From the NCBI GenBank assembly GCA_965649165.1, contig CBFGJT010000004.1:15960-79959 (forward strand): DNA of 64,000 bases. Reading direction: 5' to 3'. Made by a program: the position numbers and the translations under genes. Shown piece by piece: positions 2,010 through 29,700 of this stretch (its first letter is position 1; each line of letters opens with the position of its first letter). Under the pieces are notes generated by a model, which ran no database searches, was not told the DNA's origin, and worked only from the letters and a program-made list of their open reading frames with translations. This stretch comes from a candidate division WOR-3 bacterium (GTDB lineage: Bacteria; Hydrothermota; Tepidihabitantia; Tepidihabitantales; Tepidihabitantaceae).

Positions 2010-2039
2010 AGTCAGTCTGCTCTTTTACACTACATTACT

Positions 2040-2894: not shown

Positions 2895-2924
2895 TCTATC
2901 CTCCTTTGTTCTTCAACGTTTATC

Positions 2925-4112: not shown

Positions 4113-4255
4113 GACAACTCCTTTCTTTTGCTTTTGCTTAAACACGCGTAAAAATCTTAAGTAACTAAAATAAATGCCTAATAAATTAATTGTTAAATTC
4201 TGGTTAACAGAGCTGAAGATTAAGTTGTTGTTTTAACTGTATGTTTTTAAAGGAA

Positions 4256-6574: not shown

Positions 6575-6588
6575 TAATGGCCGAAAAA

Positions 6589-7428
6589 TCACTTCTGCTC
6601 CCTCATCGTCAGTAGTGCGATCGTATTCAACACCGCTATGATCACAAACAGCACCACGCCCGTTGCAAACAGCGCCCGCTGGTGGTCTCCGGCTGCATAA
6701 CCCATCTCCAGCGCGATGTTTGAGGTCAGTGTTCGCACCGGCACCAGTGGTGAAGTCGGGATCAACAGCGCATTGCCCGCAACCATAATCACCGCCATCG
6801 TTTCGCCAACCGCCCGGCCCATTGCCAGAATCAAACTGGCGATAATGCCGCTCCTTGCTGCCCGGAACTGCACCCGGTAAAGCGTCTGCCACCGGGTCGC
6901 GCCGAGTGCGAGCGAACCCTCCTTGTAACTCAGAGGGACCGCATTCAGTGCATCGAGTGAAATGGCAATCACTGTAGGCAGAATCATAATCCCCAGAATA
7001 ATCCCGGCAGCAAGCACCGAGAAACCGGGGCCGCCAAATGTCTGGCGAATCCAGGGCACAAGCACCACCACACCCATGAAACCGTAAACCACCGAAGGAA
7101 TCCCGGCAAGCAGTTCAATCAGCGGCTTCAGGATTCTGACACTCCACCGCGGAGCAAACTCCGCAAGGAACATTGTGCCCGCGAGCCCGAGCCCGCCACC
7201 AAAAACCAGTGCCAGCAAAGTCACTGCCAGCGAACCGAGAATCATAGGCAAAATCCCGAAACTACCCCGGGTTGGTGCCCAGCGCGTCGAGGCAATGAAA
7301 TTCTTCAGACCAACCTTGACAATCAGTGGCATGCCCTCAATGAAGATGAACAGCGCAATCAATAGTAGCGAACCAAGCGCGGACAGGGCAACTATCAGCA
7401 GTCCCTTCTCAATCAGCTTTTCTTTCAT
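6589..7428 (-). CDS. pstC: Phosphate ABC transporter permease PstC (second operon)
   Basis: 279 aa; …EGSLALGATRWQTLYRVQFRAARSGIIASL…; it follows pstS. Confidence 0.85.
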   Translation of the reverse strand: MKEKLIEKGLLIVALSALGSLLLIALFIFIEGMPLIVKVGLKNFIASTRWAPTRGSFGILPMILGSLAVTLLALVFGGGLGLAGTMFLAEFAPRWSVRILKPLIELLAGIPSVVYGFMGVVVLVPWIRQTFGGPGFSVLAAGIILGIMILPTVIAISLDALNAVPLSYKEGSLALGATRWQTLYRVQFRAARSGIIASLILAMGRAVGETMAVIMVAGNALLIPTSPLVPVRTLTSNIALEMGYAAGDHQRALFATGVVLFVIIAVLNTIALLTMREQK

Positions 7429-8249
7429 CAGCGCACCCGGATTAATCCCTCTTCAGCCAGCGCCGCCTGACCCTCCAGACTCAGCACGAAATCGATAAAT
7501 GACCGGACGAGCGGATTACTGTCACCAGCGACGACAAACAGAAAATCCCGTGCCAGCGGATACTGATGGCTCCGGATGGTTTCCTCGCTCGGCTGGACAC
7601 CATCAATTGCCAAGGTCTTCACCCGTTCATCCACCAGCCCGAACGAAATGTACCCGATTGCGGCTGGATCATTAGCAACGACCTCCCGCACTGCACCATT
7701 GGAATCCTGCACCAGTGCATCCGGGGCAAAATGCTCCCCCTCCATCACCTTCTCCTCAAAACTTGTTCTTGTCCCCGAGCCCTCCTCTCTGGTAATTACT
7801 GTAATCCTCAGATTTGCACCCCCAAACTCCCGCCAGTTCCGGACCGCACCGGAAAAAATCGCCCGTACCTGCTCACGGGTCAGACTCACTACTGGATTTG
7901 TTGGATGGACCACCAGCACAATACCATCAACCGCAATCGGAATTGCGGTCAATCCGGATTCACCAGCATTGAGATGCCGGGAACACATCCCGATATTACA
8001 GATCCGGTTCTGGACCGCTCTGACTCCGGCGGTTGATCCGCCCCCCTGAACATTGATTTCAACTCCGGGATGCCGTTGCTGATAAAGTTCTGCCAGTAGT
8101 TCGATAAACGGCTGGACTGAGGTAGAACCGGCAAGCACGAGCGCTTTCTTGCTACTACTCCGGCAGCCGGGCAACAGAAATAGAAATGAACACAGAAGGA
8201 TGATTACTCGAAAAATTTCCTCAGACACCGGGTGCAAAATGTTAATCAT
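7428..8249 (-). CDS. pstS: Phosphate-binding lipoprotein PstS (second operon)
   Basis: Lipobox LLPGC in the signal peptide, then …VLAGSTSVQPFIELLAELYQQRHPGVEINVQGGGSTAGV…, typical of PstS/PBP-family proteins. Confidence 0.8.
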   Translation of the reverse strand: MINILHPVSEEIFRVIILLCSFLFLLPGCRSSSKKALVLAGSTSVQPFIELLAELYQQRHPGVEINVQGGGSTAGVRAVQNRICNIGMCSRHLNAGESGLTAIPIAVDGIVLVVHPTNPVVSLTREQVRAIFSGAVRNWREFGGANLRITVITREEGSGTRTSFEEKVMEGEHFAPDALVQDSNGAVREVVANDPAAIGYISFGLVDERVKTLAIDGVQPSEETIRSHQYPLARDFLFVVAGDSNPLVRSFIDFVLSLEGQAALAEEGLIRVR

Positions 8250-10992: not shown

Positions 10993-11781
10993 ATGATGAA
11001 AGATACGCTTGGGATAGTTACCGTGCTGGCTGCCGGCGGTCTGCTTTTATCCTGCTCTGATGCGCCCCTGATTGAACGTGCGGCAAACCGGATTGTGCTC
11101 GTGGAACTGTTCTCTACTCCTATCGATGAATGAGCCTACTGTGCGTCCGCGGTGCGGGCGCTGGACAGCCTGAGGGGAAGCTATGGTGATTCAATGGCTT
11201 TTGTGATCTACTACGATTCGGAACTTCTGCCTGAACTTTCCTCACCGGCAGGCAAGGTGCGGGCTGATTGGTACGGCGCGGGTGGGGAACGACCACTGGC
11301 ATTCTTTGACGGCACCATCCGCTCACCTCAGATTACGCTGCCTGACTCCTTTTATCCGGTTTATCGGGACATGATTGACGCCGCCCGGGCCAGAAAAACG
11401 ATGATGGAAATGAAAATTGATAGCGCTGTCATCGACTCCTCCTGGCTCACCGTGCGAGTCGTGATTACTCCTACCGATTCTTCTGCCGACACGATTACCA
11501 CCCTGAGCCTGGTGGCAATCGTCTTTGAAGACAGCATACCCTATTATTCAGTCCTGAGAGGCGATACCTTCTATTCACCAATGACCGTGCGCACGGTCAT
11601 TGGTGACAGCTTCGGGATCCCGCTCCGTGTCCGGTTCGGACAGGATTTTGATACTGTTATCAGCACACCGGTTCCGGAATGGAACCCGAACCGCATCGGC
11701 ATAGCGGTAACGGTCCAGAATCTTGCCAGCCGGGCTGTGCTACAAACCGCTGCCAAATGGCGGATAAAACAGGAGGATTGA
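10993..11781 (+). CDS. Candidate selenoprotein: a secreted lipoprotein with a thioredoxin-like U-x-x-C motif, translated through the in-frame TGA at 11131-11133. The ORF track shows only the downstream part, 11152-11781.
   Basis: ATG at 10993 begins a lipoprotein signal peptide (MMKDTLGIVTVLAAGGLLLSC). It reads in frame through TGA into …RIVLVELFSTPIDE-U-AYCASAVRALDSL…. The 3' part has no RBS or signal peptide of its own. A paralog at 17496-18518 has the TGA at the same aligned position. Confidence 0.55.
11143..11161 (+). promoter_or_regulatory. GC-rich hairpin 9 nt downstream of the in-frame UGA; a candidate bacterial SECIS-like element
   Basis: GCGUCCG-CGGUG-CGGGCGC forms a 7 bp stem (one G·U pair) with a 5 nt apical loop containing GGU. 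Confidence 0.3.
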
Positions 11782-12314
11782 TGAAAAAAGTCCTTCCTTT
11801 TGCAGTTGTCTTTCTGTTCTTTACTGTCTTCGGTACCGAAAAAAAGTACGAACCGGCACCGGATTTTACCCTCAGAGATATCAACGGCAATGAAGTAACA
11901 CTCCACGAACTCCTGAAACACGGTCCGGTTTATCTCGAATGTTGGGATCTGTCCTGCGTCAACTGCATTGCCGAACTTGATGCCCTGCTGCCGGTATACG
12001 ATTCACTGAAAGACCGAGGACTGCAGATTGTCGCCCTCTCAGTGGATAAGCCGGCGGACGAGAACCGGGTCCGGGCATTTGTTCGCGCCAAGAAATGGCC
12101 CTATATCGTCCTGCTTGATCAGCAGCAGAGAGTAAAAAAGGCATACAACATTATCATCAAACCCACCGCCTATCTCATCAACATGAACGGCGAAATCGTC
12201 TACACCCATATCGGCTATAAGAAGGGCGACGAAAAACGGATTGCCCAGGAAATGGTAAAATGGCTGCCGCCCCAAGACTCGGTTCCGCCTGAGCAACCGC
12301 CTCAGGGAAAATAG
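11781..12314 (+). CDS. TlpA/ResA-like periplasmic thiol-disulfide oxidoreductase (thioredoxin fold)
   Basis: Signal peptide MKKVLPFAVVFLFFTVFG, then …PDFTLRDINGNEVTLHELLKHGPVYLECWDLSCVNCIAELDAL… with a C-x-x-C active site. AGGAGG lies 4 nt upstream, and the ATG overlaps the upstream TGA stop (TGATG). Confidence 0.7.
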   Translation: MKKVLPFAVVFLFFTVFGTEKKYEPAPDFTLRDINGNEVTLHELLKHGPVYLECWDLSCVNCIAELDALLPVYDSLKDRGLQIVALSVDKPADENRVRAFVRAKKWPYIVLLDQQQRVKKAYNIIIKPTAYLINMNGEIVYTHIGYKKGDEKRIAQEMVKWLPPQDSVPPEQPPQGK

Positions 12315-12324
12315 GCACGCAAAA

Positions 12325-13785
12325 GTGGGCATAGGCAGTTTCTTAGTTCTGAGCTCGGTCTTCGGTGCCAATCTGACAATCCAGGGGGTCAACCGGGCAG
12401 AATTCTGGGCTTACCAGCAGGACTGGGCAACCCATTATGAGGACAAGCTGGAGCTCAATGCCCATTACAGCGATTTCGATGCCGAACTGGGCGTGCTGTG
12501 GTTTGAACCGTCCAAACACGAACCCTCAGTGCGCAAACCGCTCCATCTGCTTGACTACTCAATCGGTTATAACCCGGAAGAACTTGAAGTCCGGCTCGGC
12601 AGATTCTACGTTACATTCGGCCAGGGGCTTACACTAAGCAGCGGTGCTGATGATGATTTCCGGCATTACAAGAGTCTACACGGTCTGTTCGGCAAACTTA
12701 AACTGCCACTGCGCAGTGAGCTAACGCTACTTGGTGGCAGGCTCCGGGATGTCTTTTTTCAGGAAAAAACCTACAAAATAATGAACGAACTGGACACTAC
12801 TGACCAGGTACTTGGTGCTGAGCTGACCATTCGACCGATCCAACTTTTCGGTCTGGGCACCCGTTATGTCCGCATTAACCGGGAGGTCGATCCGACCGCA
12901 CGGGCATTCACCGAACTCTTTGGTGGTGACTGCCGGCTGGATATCGGACCTGTCTCTGCTGGAGCGGAATTTGCCTGGCGGCTGGGGACAAAACCGGGAA
13001 TCGGCGGCCGGGAAACCGGCACGGGCTACATTCTGAATCTGGGCACCGCACTTGCCGGTTTTTCCATCCTCGCACAGTATGTAAACTACCTCCGGCTAGG
13101 TTTTCCTCCAGGCACTTATCACTACAACGACCCCCCCACTCCGATTAAATCCGGCGTCTCAATTAACCGGGGCGTGGATGAACAGGGGTTCGGAGTTCAG
13201 ATCTCAGGAACGATACCTAACGGGCTCTACCTTGAAGCTGATGTGGGTCGTCTTTTTGTCCATGATGACACCAGCGCCGGTGTGTTTGAGGGGGAATTTA
13301 AAACACGGCAATCACTGGGAACAAACTGGACATTTGAACTCAAATTCAACCATATGCTCCAGCGAAACATCGAACTGGGAACTTACGAACGGACTACCGA
13401 CCGTCCGACAATCCTTGTGAACTACCTCACCGGACCCCACACCTTTACTCTCGAGGTGGAACTGGGCTGGGTAACCGAACTGCCCACTGATACCACTCAT
13501 GGCAGCCGCTGGCAGTATCACGAACCCCTGGTTTCTGTCAGTTACGGGCTGGGAGAAAAATGGCTTTTTACCATCGGCTGGCAGGGCGTGGACAGAGATT
13601 CACTCAAGCGTTACGACAACCAGACCTCCTGGCCTGTGTTTGAAACTGTCTATAATCTTAATGAACGGAATGTTCTGCGGCTGCGTATCGGAGCAGAAAA
13701 AGGTGGTTATACCTGCTCAGGTGGTGTGTGCCGCTATGAGGCGCCGTTCCGGGGTATGAAACTGCAACTGATCAGCCGGATATGA
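12325..13785 (+). CDS. Hypothetical secreted beta-rich protein, possibly an outer-membrane beta-barrel
   Basis: 486 aa with alternating hydrophobic/polar segments and Gly/Tyr-rich turns. No recognisable catalytic motif. It follows the thioredoxin gene at a 10 nt gap. Confidence 0.35.
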   Translation: MGIGSFLVLSSVFGANLTIQGVNRAEFWAYQQDWATHYEDKLELNAHYSDFDAELGVLWFEPSKHEPSVRKPLHLLDYSIGYNPEELEVRLGRFYVTFGQGLTLSSGADDDFRHYKSLHGLFGKLKLPLRSELTLLGGRLRDVFFQEKTYKIMNELDTTDQVLGAELTIRPIQLFGLGTRYVRINREVDPTARAFTELFGGDCRLDIGPVSAGAEFAWRLGTKPGIGGRETGTGYILNLGTALAGFSILAQYVNYLRLGFPPGTYHYNDPPTPIKSGVSINRGVDEQGFGVQISGTIPNGLYLEADVGRLFVHDDTSAGVFEGEFKTRQSLGTNWTFELKFNHMLQRNIELGTYERTTDRPTILVNYLTGPHTFTLEVELGWVTELPTDTTHGSRWQYHEPLVSVSYGLGEKWLFTIGWQGVDRDSLKRYDNQTSWPVFETVYNLNERNVLRLRIGAEKGGYTCSGGVCRYEAPFRGMKLQLISRI

Positions 13786-13928: not shown

Positions 13929-15209
13929 ATGGTGAAACGACGCATCGCCCCGCATCGCATCGGTCAGATAATCGGCACCGTGCTCCTGAACGGTTATATC
14001 CTTGCCTATCTTCAGAATAAAGTCCTTTATTCCGGAATACTCAAATCGGTACCTGAACCCGTGCTCAACTGTTACGGCGGCCCCCTTTCAGTATTTGCCT
14101 GCCCGCTTGGCTCTTTTCAACAAATCATCGGTATGAAAGGGGTTACCTGGTGGCAGAATATACCCTGGGTGATTCTGGGGCTGTTCATAATAATCGGCGC
14201 ATCTGTCGGTCGGGCGGCTTGCGGCTGGATATGCCCGTTCGGATTGTGGCAGGACCTGCTTTACAAGATTAAAATCGGACCGCGGGCAAAACTGAGCCGA
14301 TGGGTTACCTTCTTGACTATTGCCGGGATCGGCATACTGACTTTAACTCTGCTTGCCACCTTCATCAAAATCTCATTCTGGAAAGGACTGCTACTCGGGT
14401 GGCTGCCGTTTATGGCGTTGCTGCTCTACAGTACAATCAAGGGAAAACTCTCGCCTCCCCAGCGTTTCTCGGTTGCCAGCATGCTGCTGGGAATCCTTCT
14501 CGGTCTCTTAATCATATTCAAGCATGGAGTTAACACCGGCATCGCAACTGGCGTAGTCAACATGGCCGTCTTCAGCCTGCTCGGTGGGAAACGGTCACTG
14601 CTCATCGCCGCTCCAGCCGGTTTTATCATCAGCCTTACCGGTAAATCGGTAATACTCGGCCCTTTTGCCGGAGGGGAAATCGGCTTGCTTTTTATCCTGA
14701 TTGCGGTTTTAACCATTCTGCTCTTTGAAGAAAAATTTAAACTATTCCTCCCGGCAACTGCCCTCAAATATGCCTTTCTCGTCATCGTTGCCGGCATCGC
14801 CGCCTACTTCACTGCCGAACCTTGGTTCTGCAAACTGTGTCCTCAGGGCACCCTCGAAGCGGGTCTCCCGCTTGTGCTGTGGGACCCGGTCCAGGGTCTG
14901 CGGGCACTTGTCGGCTGGCTCTTTTATCTGAAAATTGCCATTCTTTTATTTGTCTTCTGGGCATCAATTACCGTCAAACGCCCCTTCTGCCGCATGGTCT
15001 GCCCGATCGGTGCGATTTATGCCCTGTTCAACAAAGCCAGTATGATGCGGATGGAGCTGAACGGACAAAATTGCAGTAAATGCGGAGCCTGCCGCCGGGT
15101 CTGTCCCATGGACATCGAGCCGTTCCAGGATCCGAATCAGGCAGAATGCATCCGGTGTTTTGAGTGTGTCTGGATCTGTTCGCGAAAATCGTTGAAAATT
15201 ACTTTCTGA
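13929..15209 (+). CDS. Polytopic membrane protein with 4Fe-4S ferredoxin-type clusters, of the NapH/MauN/CcoG-like polyferredoxin family
   Basis: Repeated cysteine motifs CGWICPFG, CKLCPQG, CRMVCPIG, CSKCGACRRVCP and CIRCFECVWIC are interspersed with TM helices. Confidence 0.6.
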   Translation: MVKRRIAPHRIGQIIGTVLLNGYILAYLQNKVLYSGILKSVPEPVLNCYGGPLSVFACPLGSFQQIIGMKGVTWWQNIPWVILGLFIIIGASVGRAACGWICPFGLWQDLLYKIKIGPRAKLSRWVTFLTIAGIGILTLTLLATFIKISFWKGLLLGWLPFMALLLYSTIKGKLSPPQRFSVASMLLGILLGLLIIFKHGVNTGIATGVVNMAVFSLLGGKRSLLIAAPAGFIISLTGKSVILGPFAGGEIGLLFILIAVLTILLFEEKFKLFLPATALKYAFLVIVAGIAAYFTAEPWFCKLCPQGTLEAGLPLVLWDPVQGLRALVGWLFYLKIAILLFVFWASITVKRPFCRMVCPIGAIYALFNKASMMRMELNGQNCSKCGACRRVCPMDIEPFQDPNQAECIRCFECVWICSRKSLKITF

Positions 15210-17453: not shown

Positions 17454-17495
17454 CATCTTAAGGGTAATAGTTATAATTGAATAAAGGAGGCAAAC

Positions 17496-18518
17496 GTGCT
17501 GAAGCAACTGTTCGTCCTTTCCCTGGTGCTCACCGCTACTCTGGCAGTGGGTTACCAGCGAATCGTCGTCCTGGAGGAAGCCTATTCTGAAGGCTGAGCC
17601 AGCTGCGCACCTGCCAGTCGGGCAGTTGATCAGATCACCTACGATTATGCCGGTTATGTTGTTGCCGTCGAGTGGCATGTATCATCCTCATATCCCCTGT
17701 ACTCTGCCGAAGGCCGCGGTAAATGGTTCATGTATCCCGGGCCCTACAATGGATCCTATGCAACCCCCTGGCTCTGGGTTGACGGCCGGCAGCGCGGTTA
17801 CAACTACAACCTCTGGGCAAGCTATGTTGCGGCCCAGATCGGCATTCCGACTCCGGTTCAGATCACCCTGACCGGCAATTACAACCAGACCACCCGCGAG
17901 GGCACAATCAAAGCGCTTATTCAGAATGATTCGACCGACGAGCTGACAATGCGTGTTTCGGTTGTAGTAACTGAAGACTCAATTTACTACTCCGCACCCA
18001 ATGGTGACCAGTGGCATAATCATGTCTGCCGTGATTACATTCCTAATCAGTACGGCACGGTAATTACCGTTCCTGCCGGTAGTATTGATTCGGTAATTCA
18101 ACCCTTTACGATCGCCAGCACCTGGAATGAACAACGCTGTAAAATTGTGGTTTATGCCCAGAGTACAACAATGGTACCATCCGACTCATCCTATCCTGCC
18201 TACCAAGGAGCAGAAATTGCAATCCTTGACCTCGTCGGCGTCCGTGAAGGTGTACCGGCTGAAGGCATGGCAGCACATGCACTGCCTCTTGTCAATCCGA
18301 CTTCAGCCCGGCCCGTTTTTGCCGTGACCGCCAACACCGGAGCGCAGTATCAGCTTTACATCTACACGTTTGACGGCCGCATATCCCATGCTCAAAATGG
18401 CACAATATCAGGTGACTGCAGAATTGCTGTCAACAGCCGACTTTCCCGCGGCATCTACCTCTATCGGCTTAAGATTAATGGGACTGAGTTCAAAGGCAAA
18501 CTGATCGTCACCGATTAA
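17496..18518 (+). CDS. Candidate selenoprotein paralog: a secreted U-x-x-C protein with a T9SS C-terminal sorting domain, translated through the in-frame TGA at 17595-17597. The ORF track lists only 17730-18518.
   Basis: GTG start 5 nt after AAAGGAGG gives the signal peptide VLKQLFVLSLVLTATLAVG, in frame with …RIVVLEEAYSEG-U-ASCAPASRAVDQI…. This is homologous before and after the TGA to the 10993-11781 gene (also …SVVVTEDSIYYS… vs …VAIVFEDSIPYYS…, WNEQR vs WNPNR). The C-terminus …YLYRLKINGTEFKGKLIVTD is a Por/T9SS sorting domain. Confidence 0.55.
17611..17625 (+). promoter_or_regulatory. Hairpin 13 nt downstream of the in-frame UGA; a candidate SECIS-like element
   Basis: CUGCC-AGUCG-GGCAG forms a 5 bp GC-rich stem with a 5 nt loop containing GU. 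Confidence 0.25.
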
Positions 18519-18533
18519 TAATCAGAAAAACGG

Positions 18534-18568
18534 GCGGGGCGATTGTCAATCGCCCCGCTTCTCTTTTT
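18534..18568. terminator. Bidirectional rho-independent terminator between convergent genes
   Basis: GCGGGGCGATTG-T-CAATCGCCCCGC is a perfect inverted repeat followed by CTTCTCTTTTT. Confidence 0.6.
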
Positions 18569-19736
18569 AATGATAAAACAACCGCAACCCGGTAAAAACC
18601 ATCACCATGCCATATTCATCAGCAGCACGGATAATCCCCTCATCCCGGGTTGAACCGCCGGGCTGAATCACAAACTGAACATTACTCCTGGCTGCCCGGT
18701 CAAGATTGTCCCGGAAAGGAATAAACCCATCCGAAGCCAGACAGATACCGTTAAACTGAGCAATCCACTGCCATCGTTCCTCCCGCGTCAATGGGGCTGG
18801 CACTTCAGCAAGCAGTCTGGACCAGGTATGCATCTCCTCAGGTGTGGCGTTCTCCTCCAGAAAAATATCAATTGCAGTTGCCTTCTCCCCCCGGCTGACA
18901 CCCTTTCTGAACTTCAACCCCAAAACCTTCGGATGCAGACGCAGGAACCACTTGTCTGCCTTTGCACAGGCAAGCCTGGTGCAGTGAATCCTTGACTGCT
19001 GACCTGCTCCCACTCCGATCACCTGTCCGTCATACGCCAGACAGACCGAATTGGACTGAGTGTATTTCAATGTCAGAAAGGCAAGCAGAAGATCCAACTT
19101 TGCACTATCAGGGATCACCTTCTTAACCGTAACCACATTCTCCAGCAGCTTATCGTCAATCCGGGCATCGTTACGCTCCTGCTCAAGAAAAAGACCGAAC
19201 AGCTGCCGGACCTCTACCGGCGGCGGGGTCCATGCTGGGTCAATTCGGAGAATCGGATAGGTGCCATTCTTCTTGGTTTTAAGAATTTCCAGCGCCGCGG
19301 GCTCATATCCCGGAGCAATACAGCCGTCAGAGATCTCCCGGGACAGAAGACGTGCCGTGGCTTCGTCCACCGGATCAGAAAATGCCGCCCAGTCCCCGAA
19401 GGTTGCCATCCGATCTGCACCCCGGGCACGAGCATAGGCACAGGCAAGCGGAGAAAGCTCGCCCTCGGGCACAAACAGTGACTTTTTCAGCTTATCATCC
19501 AGCTCCCGACCAATCGCTGCCCCCGCCGGGCTGGTATGTTTAAAACTGGCAGCGGCCGGCATCCGGGTAAGCGCGCGCAACTCCTTCACCAGCTGCCAAG
19601 AGTTCAATGCATCAACCAGGTTGATATATCCGGGAATTCCGTTAAGCACCTCGATTGGCAGTCTGCCTTCCGGCACATAAACCCGGGCGTTCTTCTGATG
19701 AGGATTGGTTCCGTAGCGCAGGCGGATTTCGTCCAA
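18567..19736 (-). CDS. AICAR transformylase (PurH C-terminal AICARFT) domain protein that lacks the N-terminal MGS/IMP-cyclohydrolase domain
   Basis: …LRYGTNPHQKNARVY… matches the PurH motif RYGENPHQ. At 389 aa it is about 130 aa shorter than bifunctional PurH. Confidence 0.55.
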   Translation of the reverse strand: MDEIRLRYGTNPHQKNARVYVPEGRLPIEVLNGIPGYINLVDALNSWQLVKELRALTRMPAAASFKHTSPAGAAIGRELDDKLKKSLFVPEGELSPLACAYARARGADRMATFGDWAAFSDPVDEATARLLSREISDGCIAPGYEPAALEILKTKKNGTYPILRIDPAWTPPPVEVRQLFGLFLEQERNDARIDDKLLENVVTVKKVIPDSAKLDLLLAFLTLKYTQSNSVCLAYDGQVIGVGAGQQSRIHCTRLACAKADKWFLRLHPKVLGLKFRKGVSRGEKATAIDIFLEENATPEEMHTWSRLLAEVPAPLTREERWQWIAQFNGICLASDGFIPFRDNLDRAARSNVQFVIQPGGSTRDEGIIRAADEYGMVMVFTGLRLFYH

Positions 19737-19781: not shown

Positions 19782-20186
19782 TTAAACCCGGTCCGGAAAT
19801 TTCTCCTTCAGATAATCAACAATCTCCTGGGTCGGTGTCCCGGGCCCGAACAGTCGGCCACAGCCCATCCGGTAGAGCTCCTCCATGTCCTCTTTGGGAA
19901 TTATGCCGCCGCCGAAAACCAGGATATCGCCCGCACCCCTTTCCTTCAGCAACCGCATTACCTCCGGAATTAGCGTCATATGGGCACCGGAGAGAATTGA
20001 AAGCCCGACCGCATCCACATCCTCCTGAATTGCCGTCTCCGCAATCATCTCCGGTGTCTGGTGCAATCCGGTATAGATCACCTCAAACCCGGCATCCCGC
20101 AGCGCCCGGGCAACCACCTTTGCGCCCCGGTCATGACCATCCAGCCCGGGCTTGGCGATGAGAATTCTCAGTTTCTTCATCTTCAC
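19782..20186 (-). CDS. Methylmalonyl-CoA mutase-family B12-binding subunit (small subunit of a split acyl-CoA mutase)
   Basis: …[39 protein letters not shown]… is the cobalamin-binding DxHxxG-type Rossmann domain; 134 aa. Confidence 0.8.
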
Positions 20187-20189
20187 CTC

Positions 20190-21842
20190 CTAAAACATCG
20201 GTGGTTCGGCATAAGTGCCGAAGACCTCCTTCATTGCTCCACAGATTTCCCCAAGTGTGGCATAGGCGCGTACCGCTTCCAGAATCGGATACATTACATT
20301 ATCCCGGCCCGCACAGGCGGCTTTCAGATCATCAAGGGTGCGACGCACCTTCGCATTATCCCGGCGCTGTCGCAACCGCCTCAGCCTTTCACACTGTTCC
20401 ACTTCCACCCGCGGATCAATTTTAAGTATCGGAATTTCTAGCCGCTCACCTTCTAGCACATACTTATTCACCCCGACAACCGTTCTCCTCCCTTCGTCAA
20501 CCGCCTTCTGATAACGATAAGCTGCCTCCGCAATCTCGCGCTGGGGATAACCGTACTCAATCGCCTTGATCATACCGCCTAAGGCGTCGATTTTTGCAAA
20601 ATATTCGTATGCCTGCTCTTCCAACCGATTGGTCAGCGCCTCTACATAATAGGAACCTCCCAGGGGGTCAATAACATTTATTACTCCTGTCTCCTCGGCA
20701 ATCAGCTGCTGGGTGCGCAGTGCAATCAGAACCGCCTTCTCGGTCGGCAGTGCCCAGGTTTCATCCATCGAATTGGTATGCAGACTCTGAGTGCCACCCA
20801 GTACTGCTGCCAGTGCCTGAAATGCGGTTCGGACGATATTATTCTCGGGCTGCTGGGCGGTCAGGGTACAGCCCGCAGTCTGAGTATGAAAGCGCAAAAG
20901 CCATGACTCCGGTTTTTTCGCCTTGAATGTCTCCCGCATCTCCCGTGCCCAGATTCGCCTTGCCGCCCGGAATTTGGCAATCTCCTCAAAAAAATCCAGA
21001 TGGGAATTAAAGAAAAATGAAAGTCGGGGTGCGAACTCATCCACATCCAGCCCGGCCCTGATTCCCGCTTCAACATAGGTCATCCCATCCTTCAGGGTGA
21101 ACGCCAGCTCCTGGGCTGCAGTGGAACCGGCCTCCCGGATGTGATATCCGGAGATGGAAATTGTGTTCCATTTCGGCACATGCCGGGCACCGAACGCCAT
21201 GATATCGGTAATAATCCGCATCGACGGCTCGGGCGGAAACAGCCAGGACTTCTGGGCAATATACTCCTTTAAAATGTCGTTCTGAATCGTCCCCCGCAGT
21301 TTCTCGCTTGATACCCCCTGCTTCTCCGCGGTAACAATATAGAATGCCCACAGCACCGCTGCCGGACCGTTGATCGTCATTGATGTTGATACCTCGCCCA
21401 GCGGAATACCGTCAAACAGCGTCTCCATATCCTCAAGCGAAGACACCGCCACTCCGCATTTTCCTACTTCACCCCGCGCCATCGGATCATCCGAATCCCG
21501 TCCGTAGAGCGTGGGAAAATCAAACGCTACTGAAAGCCCGGTCTCACCATGGGCAAGCAGAAACTTGTAGCGGGCATTGGTGTCCCGGGCGGTGCCGAAC
21601 CCGGAAAACTGACGCATCGTCCAGAGCCTGCCCCGGTACATGTTATGCCGGATGCCACGGGTAAACGGATACTCACCGGGGAAACCCAAATCCCGCAGAT
21701 AATCAAACCCCGGCACGTCGGCTGGTGTATAGATGATATCCACGGGCAGGCCGGAAACGGTCACGAACCGCTCCGGTTCACCCTTGTTCACACACCCTTC
21801 CCACCTTTCCCGTTCCCTCTGGATCCGTTCCAGTTCATTCAT
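20190..21842 (-). CDS. Methylmalonyl-CoA mutase-family large subunit, substrate-binding TIM barrel only. The probable start is MNELERIQ…, which overlaps the meaB stop.
   Basis: …[12 protein letters not shown]…[53 protein letters not shown]… is diagnostic of the MCM/ICM acyl-CoA mutase family. Confidence 0.8.
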
Positions 21843-22806
21843 GAAACCCCCTTTCCTTAAACAGCAGGTCCACCGCCTCATAGGGCGAAAATCGGCGGCT
21901 CATCACCGCCTCAACCAGCTCCTCCAACCGCTCCTTAAAACCGTCCCGGTGCCAGAGCCAGCTCTGTAGCTTCTCGCTGAGCCGACGTTCAATCTCCGCT
22001 CTCACCGCCCGGCGCCGGCGCTCCTCAAGAATGCTGTTGGCTTCCAGATACCGGCGGTGAGCAGATATTCTTTCATAAAGTTCCTCAATCCCCAAACCCG
22101 AAATGGCAGTAATCTTCACTACCGGTGGTATCCAGGAATCATTTTTCGTTCGCAGCTCCAGCATTGTCTGAATCTCCAGCACCATCCGGTCCGCCCCCTC
22201 CCGATCACACTTATTAACGCAGAAAATCTCCCCGATCTCCATCAACCCCGCCTTCAGCGCCTGAATTGAATCCCCGGATTCCGGCACCAGCACCACAACC
22301 GTAGAATCAGCAGCTTCCGCAATATCCAGCTCCATCTGCCCTACCCCCACGGTCTCAATCAGAATATAGTCGCAGCCGAACGCATCCAGAATATCGCACA
22401 CCTCCCGCGTGCGTCGAGCCAGTCCGCCCAGACTGCCACGGGTTGCCATTGAACGGATATAAACTCCGGGATCGGTAAAAAGTGCCGCCATCCGCACCCG
22501 ATCTCCCAGGACCGCACCGCCGGAAAATGGGGAACTCGGATCAACTGCAACAATTCCCACCCGAAAATTATACTCCCGTAACTGTCCGGCAAGCTTCTCC
22601 ACCAATGTGCTCTTCCCGGCTCCGGGCGGACCGGTAACCCCCACCCGATACGCCCTGCCCATCAGCGGATAAAGTTTATTCAGAATCAGCTTTGCCTGTG
22701 CAGACTCATCCTCGACCAGAGAAATTATCTGACCGCAGGCTCGCCGGTCACCCTGGGCGAACCGCCTCAGCAATTCATCAACGGTCAATTCCGACACGAT
22801 TGACAA
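21835..22806 (-). CDS. meaB: MeaB/ArgK G-protein chaperone of methylmalonyl-CoA mutase
   Basis: …[18 protein letters not shown]… P-loop, then …ETVGVGQ… and …NKCD…, the G3E-family GTPase motifs. Confidence 0.8.
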
Positions 22807-23287
22807 TACCTCTCTGATACGGGTGTTTGATCTCTTTAATTTCGCTCACCAGATCTGCCAGTTTAATCAGCTCCGGCTTGGCATTCCTGCCGGTAATCAC
22901 CAGTTCTACCCCGGCTGGACACTCCTGAACCAACCTGATCACCTCGATCAATGGCACTAGCCCGTAATCCACCGCACAGTTGAGCTCATCCAAAATCACC
23001 AGCTGGTAGTTTCCAGACTGGATCGCCTTCCGGGCAAACTCTAACCCCTCCCGGGCAAACCGGACATCATCCGCACCCGGATTACCCCGCTGGACAAAGG
23101 TCTTCAGACCAAACTGCCTTACTTCCAAATTTTCGAGCAACCGCGCAGTGCGGACCTCACCATACTGATTGTCACCCTTCATGAACTGCACCACCAGCAC
23201 CCGCCAGCCATGACCAAGGGCACGCATTGCCAGACCGAATGCCGCGGTTGTCTTTCCCTTGCCATCGCCCGTATAAACCTGTAGCAT
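22778..23287 (-). CDS. cobO: Cob(I)alamin adenosyltransferase (CobO/CobA/BtuR type)
   Basis: MLQVYTGDGKGKTTAAFGLAMRALGHGWRVLVVQFMKG…LVILDELNCA… is the CobA-family P-loop fold; 169 aa. Confidence 0.75.
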   Translation of the reverse strand: MLQVYTGDGKGKTTAAFGLAMRALGHGWRVLVVQFMKGDNQYGEVRTARLLENLEVRQFGLKTFVQRGNPGADDVRFAREGLEFARKAIQSGNYQLVILDELNCAVDYGLVPLIEVIRLVQECPAGVELVITGRNAKPELIKLADLVSEIKEIKHPYQRGIVNRVGIDR

Positions 23288-24230: not shown

Positions 24231-26333
24231 CTAATTCAGCCGCAGAACCTTAGTCTCAACCATGCCATCCGGAGTAGAAACCTTCAGAAAATACACACCA
24301 CGATTCAAACCTTGGGGCTGCCACAAATAACTGCCGCTTCCCGGTGCAACATCAAACTCCACCTGCTCAACCCGTCGGCCTGATGCATCAAAAGCTTCAA
24401 ACCTCATCCTGCCTGCAATTCCCGCATGATAATATATCCGGGTCCGGCGTCCAAACGGATTAGGAGAAACCCGGAACTTCAACGGCTCTACTACCGCCGG
24501 TACCTCCGCCAATCCCACATTGGCATTATACCACACCTGCGCCGCATCCGCATTTGCCCGCAACCCGTTCTCATCACTGCCACCTACCACCGCCACCGCT
24601 AGCCGGGCACTTCCTCCCGGATTGATATCAAACGGTCCGGCAGAGGTAACGATTGACCAGTCATAGGGCCGGTTGGAGCTCCGCTGGACGATTGTGCCGT
24701 TCAAAAAGCGCCACTTCATATTTTCGGTCATTGCGGTATCCGGATAGACATAAATCGCATGATCCACCAGGCTCAGATTCCGGAAACTGGCAGGCTCCAG
24801 AATTCTCACCCCCACTGTCGGATTGGCGCCCGACGCCTGCCGCATATACACCAGTCGGCGCACGGTGTCGGCGGCACCTTGATTGGTTGTGGGCGAGGAA
24901 CCGATGTCAAAATCCATAAACAGACCGGCATACAAACCGTTAACCGCACTGGAGCCCTGATTCTGGATGTCATAGACAATGACGATAAAGTCATCAAACG
25001 AGGGGTCGGCACTCATATAACTATGCTGAACCACCCGCAGGCTCTTGGGACGGGGATGAGCCGCGTCAGAGAAGCTGGCGTAAAAATGCTCATCACCGAC
25101 ACCCGGCGGCACAGTCGCCCGCAGCGACTCCACCGCCACTAGATCCGAATTGATCTGGCTTGCCGGCCGGCCATAATACCGGTCTGCAACATAACCGGTA
25201 TCGGTCCCCATCACAAATGAGCCGTAATAGAGGGCGCTGGCGGCTGTCTTCGGATAGCGGAACCCGGAACCGGCATCCGCCGGAGCATCATACCCCACCG
25301 GACCAAAACAGGAGACCGTCAGCCGGCAGTAACCGGTATCATGATCCATCAACGCAAACACATTGGCAATACTCGTCGTCTGCCATGAGGTGTCATTCGC
25401 CCGGTTAAGGTCACCACTCAGGTCGGTAAACATCGTGACAGTATAACTTGCACCTCCTGGACCGGTATGCCATACCGGAAAAGTTACATCGGTCCGAGAA
25501 CCAGGCTGAATTGCACTCGTTACGGTCACAATCTCATTATATACCCTCACCGCTCCGGAATCGATCCAGCAGTAAACCTGAAAGTTACTCTCCGCATTCG
25601 TGCCATAATTGACCACCCGGGCAACGGGCTGATAACTACCCGGACCAACATTCGGCTCCGGCACCAGAATTCTTGACACGCCCACATCATGTGCCAGCCC
25701 TGGAATCCGGCTGATAACGGCTCTGATATTCCAGTTGTAATTTAACCCCTGGTCTGCCAGCTGGCGCCAAGATGTGCGGTTATTGGAGAGGAACCCACCC
25801 CGGTTGCGCACCATCGGTCCGGCATCGCACCCGATCGGATATCTCCCTGCAGTATGTGTCAACCGCACACAGGCCCAGAAATCGCTTCCCGCCGGCAATA
25901 CCAGCGGCGGATTGAGATCAATCCGCTTCCAGCGCATCGAGTCCGCACCACTGTAGGGAACCGATTCCAGCACCGCCCCAGGGGTAGTATCATTACCTTC
26001 CGCAAAAATATATGCATAATCGTTGCTGGAGTTGTGCCACTGATAGAAGAGAATCGCCTTAAGCGTGCAGGCACTCGTCGGGGTAAAACGCGCCGCTGAA
26101 TAGAAGGTGCCGCCACTGGTTAGCCCTACACCAGTATAAGGTACACCATCAAAATGGAGAGTTTCATCAGCAAAGAAATCGACCGCTGGCGATTCGTTGT
26201 TACTCACTGCTGGGGTCAGCATTTCCTCAGATCGGCTCAAAAGTGGAGCCGGCCCGGCCTGCGTCACCGGCAGCGCACCCCAGGCAAGTGCAATAACCAC
26301 TGTCAGACCAGCTACGACCGACAACAGCCTCAT
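24231..26333 (-). CDS. Large secreted protein with a T9SS C-terminal sorting domain; function unknown
   Basis: Signal peptide MRLLSVVAGLTVVIALAWG. The C-terminus …SPNPFGRRTRIYYHAGIAGRMRFEAFDASGRRV…GVYFLKVSTPDGMVETKVLRLN is a Por-secretion tail. Confidence 0.6.
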   Translation of the reverse strand: MRLLSVVAGLTVVIALAWGALPVTQAGPAPLLSRSEEMLTPAVSNNESPAVDFFADETLHFDGVPYTGVGLTSGGTFYSAARFTPTSACTLKAILFYQWHNSSNDYAYIFAEGNDTTPGAVLESVPYSGADSMRWKRIDLNPPLVLPAGSDFWACVRLTHTAGRYPIGCDAGPMVRNRGGFLSNNRTSWRQLADQGLNYNWNIRAVISRIPGLAHDVGVSRILVPEPNVGPGSYQPVARVVNYGTNAESNFQVYCWIDSGAVRVYNEIVTVTSAIQPGSRTDVTFPVWHTGPGGASYTVTMFTDLSGDLNRANDTSWQTTSIANVFALMDHDTGYCRLTVSCFGPVGYDAPADAGSGFRYPKTAASALYYGSFVMGTDTGYVADRYYGRPASQINSDLVAVESLRATVPPGVGDEHFYASFSDAAHPRPKSLRVVQHSYMSADPSFDDFIVIVYDIQNQGSSAVNGLYAGLFMDFDIGSSPTTNQGAADTVRRLVYMRQASGANPTVGVRILEPASFRNLSLVDHAIYVYPDTAMTENMKWRFLNGTIVQRSSNRPYDWSIVTSAGPFDINPGGSARLAVAVVGGSDENGLRANADAAQVWYNANVGLAEVPAVVEPLKFRVSPNPFGRRTRIYYHAGIAGRMRFEAFDASGRRVEQVEFDVAPGSGSYLWQPQGLNRGVYFLKVSTPDGMVETKVLRLN

Positions 26334-27579: not shown

Positions 27580-29700
27580 CTACTGTCCACGGTTCACCAG
27601 TGCCAGCCGCTCGGTAATAATCCCCTGCCCACTGTTTGCAACTACCAGATAAATACCACTCCCGGTCTTATCCGGGACCCAGTATGCCCTGCCCAGCCCC
27701 GGACTCACCGGCAGTTCTGCAACCGGCATTCCGCTCAAAGTGTAAACCCTTACCCGGGCATCGCTGGGTAGACCGGCAACTACCACTCCCCTGTGAACCC
27801 CAAAAACAAACGGATTCGGAAAAATCTTCAACCCCTGGGCAACCGAATCCGGCTCCGGTGCATAAGAAAAAACTGAGACACCCCGGGCGGTCCCGATCAC
27901 CGCAACCCCCTGTTCATCATCAAGGGCGAGTGCGGTATAAAAACCGGTCAGACTCTGGGAGTTGGGTAGCAGTCCGCTGTTCTGGGCAGTATAATTCGTC
28001 CAGCTCCCGGTTGCATCATCAAAAATTGACAGCCCCTGGTCAGATAGAAACCACACCCGCCCCCCGCCGTCAACCCGCACCCGGTAAAGGTTATTGGACA
28101 ACAACCGGCTGTTACTTGTAGTATAAACCTGAAACCTGCTTCCGTCCCACATTGCCCCCCCCTGCGGTGTTGCCACCCATACCCGGTCCTGAGGATCAAC
28201 CGCAACTGATCGCACCTCACTTGCCGGCAGCCCTTCGCTGTGCAGAGCATGCCGGTCATCTCCGGGATAAAACAGCGTTCCATTATAGTCGAACTCCTCA
28301 AGCCCGTTGGTCAACCCGACCCACACCCGATTCCGGGAATCAAAGGCAAACTCATAATTGCCCCCTGGTGGTGGCACCAGCTCTGGCAGATAAAACTCCG
28401 CCTCCCTGCCCAACGAATCGATTGCGATAACCGAACCGCTTTTGTTAAACACCCATTTGGTATCATTACGGTCCAACCCGAACGCCTGAACCACATTCCG
28501 ATCCCCGGACCCCAGCTGTCGACTCCCCCAGGTATCAGCCTCTGGATCATAAACACTCAACCCGCCCGGATAGAAATGGCTGAACCAAATCCTTCCCCGC
28601 GAATCGCATCGCGCCTGCACCGCCCAGCTCAGGGGAGAAAGAATAATCTGCACTGAACTGTCCGGCTTAATCCGGGAGATGTAGGAACTGTGGTGCCCGA
28701 CATAAATACTCCCGTCTTTCCCCAAGGCACAGTCGCTCACCATTCCCGAGGCAACGCCGTTAAAATAGTAACTTTCCCAGGACTGACCGCTCCGCAGATA
28801 CCGCAAGCCCAGCCCCCACTCATCATTTCCTCCCAGCCCGGCCCACAAAACCGCACCGGCACACAGACAACGAATGTCACCCAGCAGCAGCGGTACCATC
28901 ATCCCGGCGCTGTCAACCTGAAACAGCGTATCCGCGGTTGCAAGATAGATACTGTTGCCCGTAACTGCCAGATCCCGGACCGCCTTTGCCTGCGCGAATG
29001 TCACTATCGGCACCAGCCTGCCGGTATCTCCAACCACTAGCCCCTGCTCAGTACCGGCAACAATCCGGCCATCGGACAGCAGGGCGATGGCACTCACTGA
29101 ATCCCCCAGCGGTCGGCGAAAGGCGCGCCAGCGGCTGAACTCCTGATCAACCTGCGTCAATCCCTGATTAGTTCCGATCCAGTAACCGTCAGAGCTGACC
29201 GCAATCGCCAGCACCCGGTCACTCAAAAGCTCCCGCACCCGGGCAAAATTGTAATGCTCAACCCGGTCATCCTCAAAATTCAACGGTGAACCCCGCATCT
29301 CAACAACATACAAGCCCTGCTCAGTGCCGAGCAACACCCGCTCAGAATCAACCACCACCGCCCGGATCCGCAGTGGCAGTTCACCGGCGCGATACAGCCG
29401 GGCACGGACCGAATCGGCGGGGATAACCGCCAGTCCGGCACCATCGGTTCCAACCCAGAGATTACGCTCCCGATCCCGGGCAATACAGAGACAACGATTC
29501 ACCCCCAGTCCGTCTGTATGGTAGAAATGGTGCCAGACCCTGATCTCCGGTTTTGTCTCCAAAATTACCACCCCGCCCAGGGTTGCCGCATTCAGTATCG
29601 AATCATCACCGCACAGATCAGCGACAAAATTACTGTTGGTAAATGTCTGCCAGCCACCAGGTGCAGCGGACAGGAGCAACATAATTGCCAAACTCATCAT
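27580..29700 (-). CDS. Secreted beta-propeller protein with a T9SS C-terminal sorting domain; the repeats resemble the two-component-regulator-propeller type
   Basis: Signal peptide MMSLAIMLLLSAAPG. Repeated …W(F/I/V)GT..GL… propeller blades. The C-terminus …KIFPNPFVFGVHRGVVVAG…VRVYTLSGMPV… is a Por-secretion tail. Confidence 0.6.
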   Translation of the reverse strand: MMSLAIMLLLSAAPGGWQTFTNSNFVADLCGDDSILNAATLGGVVILETKPEIRVWHHFYHTDGLGVNRCLCIARDRERNLWVGTDGAGLAVIPADSVRARLYRAGELPLRIRAVVVDSERVLLGTEQGLYVVEMRGSPLNFEDDRVEHYNFARVRELLSDRVLAIAVSSDGYWIGTNQGLTQVDQEFSRWRAFRRPLGDSVSAIALLSDGRIVAGTEQGLVVGDTGRLVPIVTFAQAKAVRDLAVTGNSIYLATADTLFQVDSAGMMVPLLLGDIRCLCAGAVLWAGLGGNDEWGLGLRYLRSGQSWESYYFNGVASGMVSDCALGKDGSIYVGHHSSYISRIKPDSSVQIILSPLSWAVQARCDSRGRIWFSHFYPGGLSVYDPEADTWGSRQLGSGDRNVVQAFGLDRNDTKWVFNKSGSVIAIDSLGREAEFYLPELVPPPGGNYEFAFDSRNRVWVGLTNGLEEFDYNGTLFYPGDDRHALHSEGLPASEVRSVAVDPQDRVWVATPQGGAMWDGSRFQVYTTSNSRLLSNNLYRVRVDGGGRVWFLSDQGLSIFDDATGSWTNYTAQNSGLLPNSQSLTGFYTALALDDEQGVAVIGTARGVSVFSYAPEPDSVAQGLKIFPNPFVFGVHRGVVVAGLPSDARVRVYTLSGMPVAELPVSPGLGRAYWVPDKTGSGIYLVVANSGQGIITERLALVNRGQ

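Follow-up and report, generated by a model that had tools for sequence, protein, structure and literature searches.

The subject of this analysis is the gene at positions 17496-18518 (forward strand) of a 64,000-nucleotide (nt) stretch of DNA from a candidate division WOR-3 bacterium (contig CBFGJT010000004.1 of GenBank assembly GCA_965649165.1), the whole of which is referred to here as the window. These positions likely form one gene, coding for a 340-residue thioredoxin-like selenoprotein tagged for type IX secretion, which would work as an oxidoreductase outside the outer membrane. The parts of this proposal differ in strength. From sequence comparison, SelB-dependent insertion of selenocysteine (Sec, written U in sequences) at codon 34 is proposed with high confidence, and export through the Sec translocon by an N-terminal signal is very probable. 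Type IX export through a C-terminal domain, suggested by domain matches and by neighbouring genes, is reasonably probable, and a role as selenol/thiol-disulfide oxidoreductase at or beyond the outer membrane, proposed from the position of a UxxC motif and from the known protein HBP35, stands at a little better than an even chance.

When the sequence is read directly, a Shine-Dalgarno element, AAAGGAGG, is found at 17483-17490(+) and is followed after a 5-nt spacer by a GTG at 17496, and a GGAGG-like sequence also lies just 5′ of the starts in those homologous loci whose translations were read. The frame opened by this GTG runs for 340 codons to TAA at 18516-18518, and the only in-frame TGA before that stop is codon 34, at 17595-17597. 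Read in this frame, the product begins with VLKQLFVLSLVLTATLAVG, of which residues 1-19, (M)LKQLFVLSLVLTATLAVG (17496-17552), were judged by reading to be a Sec-type signal peptide for signal peptidase I (SPase I), composed of a basic residue, a 15-residue hydrophobic core and AVG, with no lipobox cysteine in residues 1-22. The segment YQRIVVLEEAYSEG connects this signal peptide to the TGA, which would open the redox motif U-A-S-C (17595-17606, +) with Cys37 as the predicted resolving residue. Only 17730-18518 (262 amino acids, aa) appears for this gene in a mechanical list of open reading frames (ORFs). On the 3′ side an intrinsic terminator at 18534-18568, read directly as an 11-base-pair (bp) GC-rich stem with a GTC loop and a T-rich run, separates the gene from a convergent one at 18567-19736(-). 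The GTG with its 5-nt spacing, the TGA and the ORF from 17730 had already been reported by a first-pass annotation made from the letters alone, and all of these coordinates were confirmed on the sequence. When the window was screened for in-frame TGA codons that have a cysteine close by and an open frame to either side, only two cases were credible, 17595 and 11131, the latter in a paralog at 10993-11781; the 40 other candidates fell in non-coding frames of annotated genes and were rejected.

That this TGA marks Sec recoding and not pseudogenisation, as first proposed from the two paralogs of the window, is borne out by a far wider comparison. A search of about 5.8 billion predicted proteins returned 91 relatives (clusters P0001-P0091), and those labelled with an organism come almost all from candidate division WOR-3. 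For 80 homologous loci of species-representative genomes, matched by tblastn mostly over query residues 1-340 and so across the TGA, the DNA was taken and translated 5′ of each match. The homologous codon is TGA in 77 of the 77 N-terminally complete loci and a cysteine codon in none of them, the remaining three loci being cut by contig ends and left out of the count; 20 loci carry a nearby second copy, and TGA is found in 20 of these 20 copies as well. Each locus shows the context EE(A/L)Y(S/Q)E(G/T/D)-U-xxC-x-(A/S)S, with RVVV(L/C)EE(A/L)Y(S/Q)E conserved 5′ of the TGA. The most similar of the 77 loci is 89% identical to the window protein and the least similar about 35%, yet coding sequence is conserved 5′ as well as 3′ of the codon, which neither decay nor assembly error can account for. 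Moreover, a hydrophobic N-terminus equivalent to the signal peptide of the window protein is present 5′ of the TGA in every homologous locus, in agreement with the earlier remark that the sole in-frame signal peptide of the gene lies there. Only two full-length homologs, both metagenomic (P0029 and P0031, loci L081 and L082), have cysteine (TGC) aligned to the TGA; they read VVLEEAYSEVCDGC and VVLEEAYSETCDGC, with the pattern VVLEEAYSE(V/T)CDGC. Elsewhere in the window TGA is an ordinary stop, ending the genes for valyl-tRNA synthetase (ValRS), RimO, LipA, a major facilitator superfamily (MFS) transporter, MeaB and others, all with full-length domain matches.

Several further features of the family were seen in the course of this comparison. 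The second copies are arranged in tandem or within a few kilobases (kb), as in L013, L014, L019, L022, L024, L025, L034, L036, L043, L046, L052, L055, L056, L058, L060, L062, L065, L073 and L074, in which all copies have the TGA, and several metagenome-assembled genomes supply two or three separate loci, making the family multi-copy. Three loci bear the label Candidatus Stahlbacteria, and L064 has at 7472-8086(-) a less closely related Omp28-like gene with the sequence EEFTRVGG-U-PYCP. Two members with the TGA (L077 and L079; VVLEE(F/Y)TS..U-GSC-APASRELDS) stand on short contigs binned as Desulfuromonas or Desulfuromonadaceae, a placement that could be due to mis-binning or to transfer outside WOR-3.

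In public records this gene is systematically mis-annotated across the sampled WOR-3 genomes and metagenomes. Among the 91 relatives, 89 are only 222-310 aa long, cover at most 88% of the query and begin at arbitrary starts just after the TGA (MLDQIC..., VLDQIC..., MAVDQIV...), without a signal peptide of their own; homologs that begin 3′ of the TGA with their own signal peptides, which would have spoken for a true downstream start, did not turn up. Public gene calls break each selenoprotein gene in two, with a short ORF of 55 or 32 aa for the N-terminus and a truncated ORF for the main part, for example 5773-5940 plus 6001-6594 and 12310-12408 plus 12433 onward in L083-L085, or 32 plus 298 aa in neighbours, and the main ORF is named "Omp28-related outer membrane protein" or "hypothetical protein" by NCBI.

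Bacterial Sec codons are read with the help of a hairpin in the coding sequence, the selenocysteine insertion sequence (SECIS), and a candidate for such an element is found 3′ of the TGA. In the window it occupies 17609-17627(+), where C17611-C17615 can pair with G17621-G17625 around the loop AGUCG (17616-17620). This 5-bp core had been noticed 13 nt after the TGA in the first-pass annotation and is present as described there; the closing pair A17609-U17627 brings the spacer to 11 nt. Throughout the family the hairpin is located 11-16 nt 3′ of the TGA, and it was by comparative alignment that a covarying structure with an invariant loop G was found. In one register (alignment A2, 68 loci; helix 18-25/29-36, counted from the U of UGA), 82% of the alignment cells are paired, a share that falls to 18-39% once the partner strand is displaced by one to three columns. 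Changes on both sides are seen in five of its eight pairs: pair 24:30 is CG in 36 loci and UA in 27, pair 25:29 is GC in 30 and AU in 19, and pair 21:33 goes once from CG to AU. Loop position 26 is an invariant G, usually with U next to it. The window and eight relatives (alignment A5, nine sequences) use a register three bases upstream, with the stem at 15-21/27-33 and the loop AGUCG or GUG, and here 92% of cells are paired versus 19-64% in slid controls; pair 18:30 is CG in six sequences and UA in three, the window having U-A. The loop is thus found at +26 to +28 in 68 loci versus +22 to +26 in nine loci including the window, and the shift parallels one in the protein, from A-S-x-x-L-(D/A) to A-S-x-A-V-D. 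From these alignments the hairpin seems to have kept its structure and moved by one codon, and we take the compensatory changes and the register shift to be the informative part of the hairpin evidence. The two Cys forms have local hairpin energies of -1.5 and -3.1 kcal/mol, as compared with a mean of -9.9 kcal/mol (range -14.3 to -4.7) over 76 Sec forms, and the one loop read in a Cys form (L082) is without the G. At gathering thresholds no Rfam SECIS family was matched in the whole window, and at E-values up to 10 the regions 17560-17700 and 11100-11240 gave only noise matches to snoRNA models.

Related genomes show that the lineage decodes Sec and that genes of the family stand close to those required for this. 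ARAGORN found a tRNA-Sec within the 10-kb flanks of a family gene in six of the 80 loci (stretches 11155-14536 of L048; 2925-6320 and 9764-9857 of L052; 4015-4108 of L069; 10582-10675 of L072; 4967-5060 of L053; 9310-9403 of L054), and in L052, L069 and L072 it is directly adjacent to the family gene, with 70-77 bits on Rfam RF01852 in all three. In L048 the family gene is followed by selA (TIGR00474, 550 bits), selB (TIGR00475, 353 bits) and tRNA-Sec, and in L052 the set of selA, selB and tRNA-Sec stands upstream of the family gene. Furthermore, the complete WOR-3 chromosome CP070834.1 carries selD 3.7 kb from a family gene (L059, 14705-15736(-)), and this SelD itself has an in-frame TGA at its catalytic position, HITCAG-U-ASK; it was first matched with an approximate E. 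coli SelD query and then re-tested against TIGR00476, on which the read-through scores 336 bits, whereas an ORF finder gives only the downstream 312 aa. The adjacency to selC, selA and selB in several genomes suggests that the trait and the family are inherited together. A check for selA, selB and selD had been suggested by the first-pass annotation. In related WOR-3 genomes selA, selB, selC and a Sec-type selD are found no more than 10 kb from family members, and they are absent from the window, whose own genome would by this relationship decode Sec too.

As for the protein, Pfam Omp28 (PF11551) matches residues 89-221 with 48.6 bits against a gathering threshold of 34.9, while DUF1223 (PF06764), placed over the redox motif at residues 31-62, stays below its threshold (24.1 versus 30.7 bits). 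The curated NCBIfam models lipoprot_Omp28 (NF033782; 54.8 versus 150 bits) and Omp28_seleno (NF045500; 43.7 versus 200 bits) are also missed, and on these grounds the protein was not placed in NF045500, NF033782 or DUF1223. The family profile gives a weak match to the solved Omp28 structure 2R2C (E = 0.004). The fold was approached by modelling P0029, a full-length Cys homolog 45% identical to the window protein, with AlphaFold2 (predicted local distance difference test score, pLDDT, 84.5). In this model a thioredoxin fold (strand-CxxC-helix-strand-helix-strand-strand-helix, pLDDT mostly 80-94), with the CxxC between strand 1 and the N-terminus of helix 1, is followed by an immunoglobulin-like (Ig-like) sandwich, a flexible linker and a seven-strand C-terminal sandwich. 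Transferred to the window protein, the thioredoxin-fold domain would take up about residues 21-116 (17556-17843(+), approximate), and the Omp28-like β-sandwich about residues 122-243 (17859-18224(+); Pfam match, strands 124-245 of the model).

The closest structure of the PDB by Foldseek to the P0029 model is HBP35 of Porphyromonas gingivalis (5Y1A; E = 7.8e-13, template modelling (TM) scores 0.53/0.58), and the second is the DUF1223 structure 2AXO (E = 1.3e-8, TM to target 0.68). HBP35 has thioredoxin activity, binds hemin and contributes to heme utilisation (PMC2907840), and it is secreted by the Por (type IX) system (PMC3120885). It shares with the window family the order of signal peptide, thioredoxin domain with a two-residue-spaced redox motif, β-sandwich and type IX C-terminal domain, a match which holds at the level of structure only, on the P0029 model, and which speaks for working alike and not for membership in one family: identity in the structural alignment is 14%, and the profile match (E = 0.28) is confined to the C-terminal domain. 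HBP35 also uses Cys where the window protein has Sec, and its host is a host-associated Bacteroidota pathogen in which it is linked to heme use.

The C-terminal residues 267-340 (18294-18515(+)) were assigned as a probable type A sorting domain by TIGR04183 and by the seven-strand sandwich of the P0029 model. TIGR04183 is passed by seven of nine full-length diverse family members tested, and the family profile finds the C-terminal domains solved for PorU (6ZA2, E = 1.3e-5) and PorZ (5M11, E = 3.3e-5) and also 8GLJ, a sorting domain solved in isolation. In the window itself, a PorV/PorQ-family outer-membrane protein is encoded at 61866-63314(+) (NF033709, 121.9 bits versus a cut-off of 90). A PorZ-like protein with propeller repeats (27580-29700(-); Pfam Reg_prop) bears a sorting domain of its own (TIGR04183 23.9 versus 23), another protein with a TIGR04183 tail (700 aa) is found at 24231-26333(-), and a C25-family peptidase related to PorU (Pfam Peptidase_C25, E = 3.8e-51), which at 541 aa is shorter than PorU, at 40106-41731(+). 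On balance, these comparisons suggest that the sorting domain is present in the window protein, and the type IX tail read by the first-pass annotation thereby stands, its own score being a narrow pass.

From the established bacterial pathway, the following course of events can be proposed. SelB carrying Sec-tRNA(Sec) would bind the hairpin on the mRNA under translation, so that selenocysteine is inserted instead of termination, and the signal peptide would take the chain through SecYEG. The mature protein would consist of a thioredoxin domain, with U-A-S-C at the start of helix 1, and then the Omp28-like sandwich, while the type A sorting domain would hand it to the type IX system and be cleaved, the protein being released or anchored at the cell surface. 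By analogy with thioredoxin-fold UxxC selenoproteins and with HBP35, it may act there as a selenol/thiol-disulfide oxidoreductase, outside the outer membrane.

A number of observations weigh against this proposal. Folded alone, the window hairpin is no better than shuffled sequence (z = +0.52), and neither is the region downstream of the TGA of the paralog (z = -0.58); the claim of a SECIS element is therefore carried entirely by covariation. The window hairpin is also short, with 5 bp and one closing pair, and the stems overlap the codons of conserved residues (Ala-Ser ... Leu/Val-Asp), which inflates apparent conservation, part of the pairing being therefore inherited from the constraint on the protein. 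The machinery was seen only in related genomes, the 64-kb window containing no tRNA-Sec and no sel gene, and only a tRNA-Phe. In the sorting domain, the window protein passes TIGR04183 by a margin of just 0.9 bit (23.9 versus 23) and falls below the cut-off of Pfam PF18962 (18.6 versus 27 bits). The PorZ- and PorU-like genes are both under their curated cut-offs (93 bits versus 260 on NF052228 and 84 versus 420 on NF033707), and neither SprA/Sov nor GldK-N was seen in the window, where, as elsewhere, no search was aimed at them. Finally, the structural model was made on a Cys homolog of 45% identity with an alignment that is shallow over the first approximately 40 residues.

How do the alternatives compare? 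If the public annotation were right, the TGA would be a stop, through a pseudogene, an assembly error or a short upstream ORF, and the product would be the downstream protein of 262-300 aa. Gene callers and the NCBI pipeline do annotate it in this way, in 89 of the 91 clusters and in neighbours split into 32 and 298 aa, and the ORF finder gives nothing but 17730-18518. Yet the TGA and the in-frame coding sequence upstream of it are conserved in 77 of 77 loci to 35% identity, the downstream "starts" are unconserved and come without a signal peptide on a protein which nevertheless ends in a secretion domain, and the Cys forms are full length; on the P0029 model a start at 17730 would also leave the thioredoxin fold without its first strand, its redox motif and its first helix. 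We regard a genuine stop as scarcely credible. UGA has been reassigned in some uncultured bacterial lineages, and it is conceivable that the codon is read through here as something other than Sec, either by a lineage-wide change of the code to Trp or Gly or by near-cognate insertion of Cys or Trp. This is very improbable: TGA terminates many housekeeping genes of the window whose products have full-length domain matches, the Cys homologs hold the first Cys of a CxxC at the aligned position, tRNA-Sec, SelA, SelB and SelD adjoin family members, and a covarying hairpin follows the codon.

The other two alternatives accept Sec and differ from the main proposal in the location or in the role of the protein. 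It may be a genuine selenoprotein whose C-terminal sandwich is not a working type IX signal, in which case it would stay in the periplasm or at the inner face of the outer membrane and act like Dsb or TlpA proteins. The marginal TIGR04183 score and the sub-threshold PF18962 score would fit this, as would the FlgD Ig-like label given instead to some homologs, the PorU- and PorZ-like genes below their cut-offs with the translocon not seen in the window, and the paralog, a lipoprotein without a sorting domain. However, most full-length members pass TIGR04183 (seven of nine), the profile finds the PorU and PorZ domains and 8GLJ, the window has a PorV/PorQ-family gene over its cut-off and two other proteins with the same tail, and the domain order is that of HBP35, a proven cargo (PMC3120885). 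Retention in the periplasm is, on this evidence, unlikely. Selenolates bind soft metals strongly, and an exported Sec protein could also serve for binding and not for catalysis, in heme or metal(loid) capture or in adhesion, as has been proposed for HBP35 and Omp28. Hemin binding and heme utilisation by HBP35 (PMC2907840) and the description of Omp28 as a surface protein favour such a role, which we consider rather unlikely, as HBP35 has thioredoxin activity too (PMC2907840), replacement of Cys by Sec is typical of catalytic redox residues (PMC13188914, PMC2398784), and U-x-x-C at the N-terminus of helix 1 of a thioredoxin fold, where the model would place it, is the classical redox-catalytic arrangement.

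The first-pass annotation over-rated the novelty of the gene, since an Omp28-related UxxC family with the same Sec position had been published in 2008 from ocean metagenomes as GOS_C, with 74 Sec versus 312 Cys sequences (Zhang & Gladyshev, PMC2398784), and has been curated as NCBIfam NF045500, "Omp28-related selenoprotein" (table in the 2026 review PMC13188914). The link between NF045500 and GOS_C was made through this review table and the supplement of PMC2398784. The thioredoxin-like fold and the UxxC were noted in the 2008 paper and function was left open (PMC2398784). GOS_C and the window protein are alike in thioredoxin-like fold, UxxC, N-terminal signal peptide, Cys homologs and a SECIS-like hairpin downstream, and comparison of RVVMVEDFTGLN-U-PYCPAAS...VEWH in GOS_C with RIVVLEEAYSEG-U-ASCAPAS...VEWH in the window protein points to one superfamily with one Sec position; a GOS_C read from the supplement of PMC2398784 aligns U on U at 23% identity (E = 1e-7). 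On NF045500 (cut-off 200 bits) this read scores 336.7, whereas ten family members score 24-75, a range that takes in the window protein, which by these comparisons we judge to be a real but divergent relative of the known kind. The two also differ in source, GOS_C being from surface-ocean reads and the window family from WOR-3, and in the use of Sec, Cys outnumbering Sec in the GOS data (312 to 74) while Sec is nearly universal in the WOR-3 family. The published GOS_C read ends before the C-terminus, where a sorting domain would lie.

Among other relatives, Omp28 (PF11551, NF033782, 2R2C) shares its sandwich with the centre of the window protein above the Pfam threshold, but in comparison with the Omp28 lipoprotein subfamily the window protein has an SPase I-type signal, no lipobox, an extra sorting domain and Sec for Cys. 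DUF1223 (2AXO, Agrobacterium AGR_C_4864) has a thioredoxin-like domain and then a sandwich, like the P0029 model, and it has neither Sec nor a sorting domain and belongs to a different phylum. Known envelope selenoproteins include DsbA-like and DsbG-like proteins, a thiol:disulfide interchange protein and an FCYXU-type TonB-dependent receptor (PMC13188914). Like the window protein they contain Sec, leave the cytoplasm and mostly have UxxC or CxxU with Cys homologs; they belong to other folds and families, and none was found described with a type IX sorting domain. With envelope and outer-membrane selenoproteins thus on record (PMC13188914), export of a selenoprotein is not surprising in itself. 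A literature search gave no description of a type IX secreted selenoprotein and nothing relevant on type IX secretion or selenocysteine in WOR-3, and what appears to be undescribed so far is the type IX sorting domain on a selenoprotein, the near-fixed Sec, the linkage with selC, selA and selB, and the systematic mis-annotation.

The paralog at 10993-11781(+) is, by its translation, a selenoprotein of lipoprotein type, with a lipobox LLLSC (Cys21), a TGA at 11131-11133 (codon 47) in the motif U-A-Y-C, and no sorting domain. BLASTP aligns it with the window protein at 26% identity over 219 residues (E = 2e-9), U on U. The first-pass annotation had called the two genes alike "residue for residue" around the TGA, which holds after the codon (U-A-x-C-A-x-A-x-R-A-(V/L)-D) and not before it, where they differ in length by two residues. 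The paralog scores 19.1 bits on NF045500 and, despite its LLLSC, 17 bits on NF033782. In its minimum-energy fold a SECIS-like hairpin at 11143-11161(+) has an 8-bp stem, GCGUCCGC/GCGGGCGC, with the loop GGU, 9 nt after the UGA, and over 11 loci of the paralog family the TGA is kept and the stem is retained through C-G to A-U and U.G to G.U changes. All 19 close homologs are annotated as truncated at the TGA, and distant full-length Cys forms from other WOR-3 lineages (P0111 and P0112) read RIVLAEFFTFARCVYCP. A profile search from this subfamily returned no protein named "Omp28-related selenoprotein" among its matches. In WOR-3 about 25 clusters of the lipoprotein subfamily (P0092-P0116) are annotated as truncated, the Sec type of the clade of the paralog, as compared with about 75 full-length forms (P0111-P0195), in which Cys was read directly for P0111 and P0112 only. 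The two subfamilies would thus differ in the fixation of Sec, as judged by sequence, being almost universal in the secreted one and mixed in the lipoprotein one.

The stop codon of the paralog overlaps by one base (TGATG) the ATG of a ResA/TlpA-like thiol-disulfide oxidoreductase with CxxC at 11781-12314(+) (Pfam AhpC-TSA and Redoxin; 82.5 bits versus a cut-off of 170 on the NCBIfam ResA subfamily, hence below it), to which the paralog is predicted to be translationally coupled and which is a candidate redox partner in the envelope. A DUF6029 protein follows at 12325-13785, and the order of paralog, ResA-like redoxin and DUF6029 protein is kept in L083-L085 at about 70% identity. The region 10993-13785 may be an envelope redox module, and one may speculate that this gene order hints at an envelope redox chain; the lipoprotein paralog and the adjacent redoxin would probably share the same envelope redox chemistry as the secreted protein, this link being speculative. 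Between the two selenoprotein genes, and next after the DUF6029 protein in this conserved order, lies a 426-aa NapH/MauN-type protein with ferredoxin motifs (13929-15209, below the family cut-off), in a block with a Fer4 protein, LipA and an MFS transporter whose order is conserved in relatives. Further away, two consecutive phosphate ATP-binding cassette (ABC) transporter sets (PstS, PstC, PstA and PstB each twice) occupy 202-8249(-), with a 406-aa gene without family matches between them at 2925-4145, and 19782-23287(-) codes for the B12-binding and catalytic subunits of methylmalonyl-CoA mutase, MeaB and an ATP:corrinoid adenosyltransferase.

The finding refines existing knowledge and introduces no new principle, exported and outer-membrane selenoproteins being already on record. 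In practice, the genes of this family in the sampled WOR-3 genomes are now annotated without their signal peptide and their active site, or as two separate ORFs. With a model made for them, far more than a hundred public records would be put right and two subfamilies, both missed by NF045500, would enter selenoprotein catalogues. The family extends the GOS_C selenoproteins of 2008 into a different phylum, with HBP35 as a structural and functional analogue, and it is unusual among UxxC families in having Sec nearly fixed (77 versus 0 in the species-representative genomes). Should secretion be confirmed, the cargo of type IX systems can include selenoproteins, and a selenol catalyst would be placed outside the outer membrane. 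Tentatively, and with more doubt than confidence, we put forward the idea that Omp28-like UxxC proteins, being multi-copy, almost obligately Sec-containing, type IX-secreted as well as lipoprotein-anchored and sometimes coupled to selC-selA-selB, may be the main reason why WOR-3 keeps Sec, as an extracellular selenol redox system. Were this true, such an external system might, for example, reduce disulfides in extracellular proteins or sulfur compounds, and type IX secretion would have its first selenoproteome.

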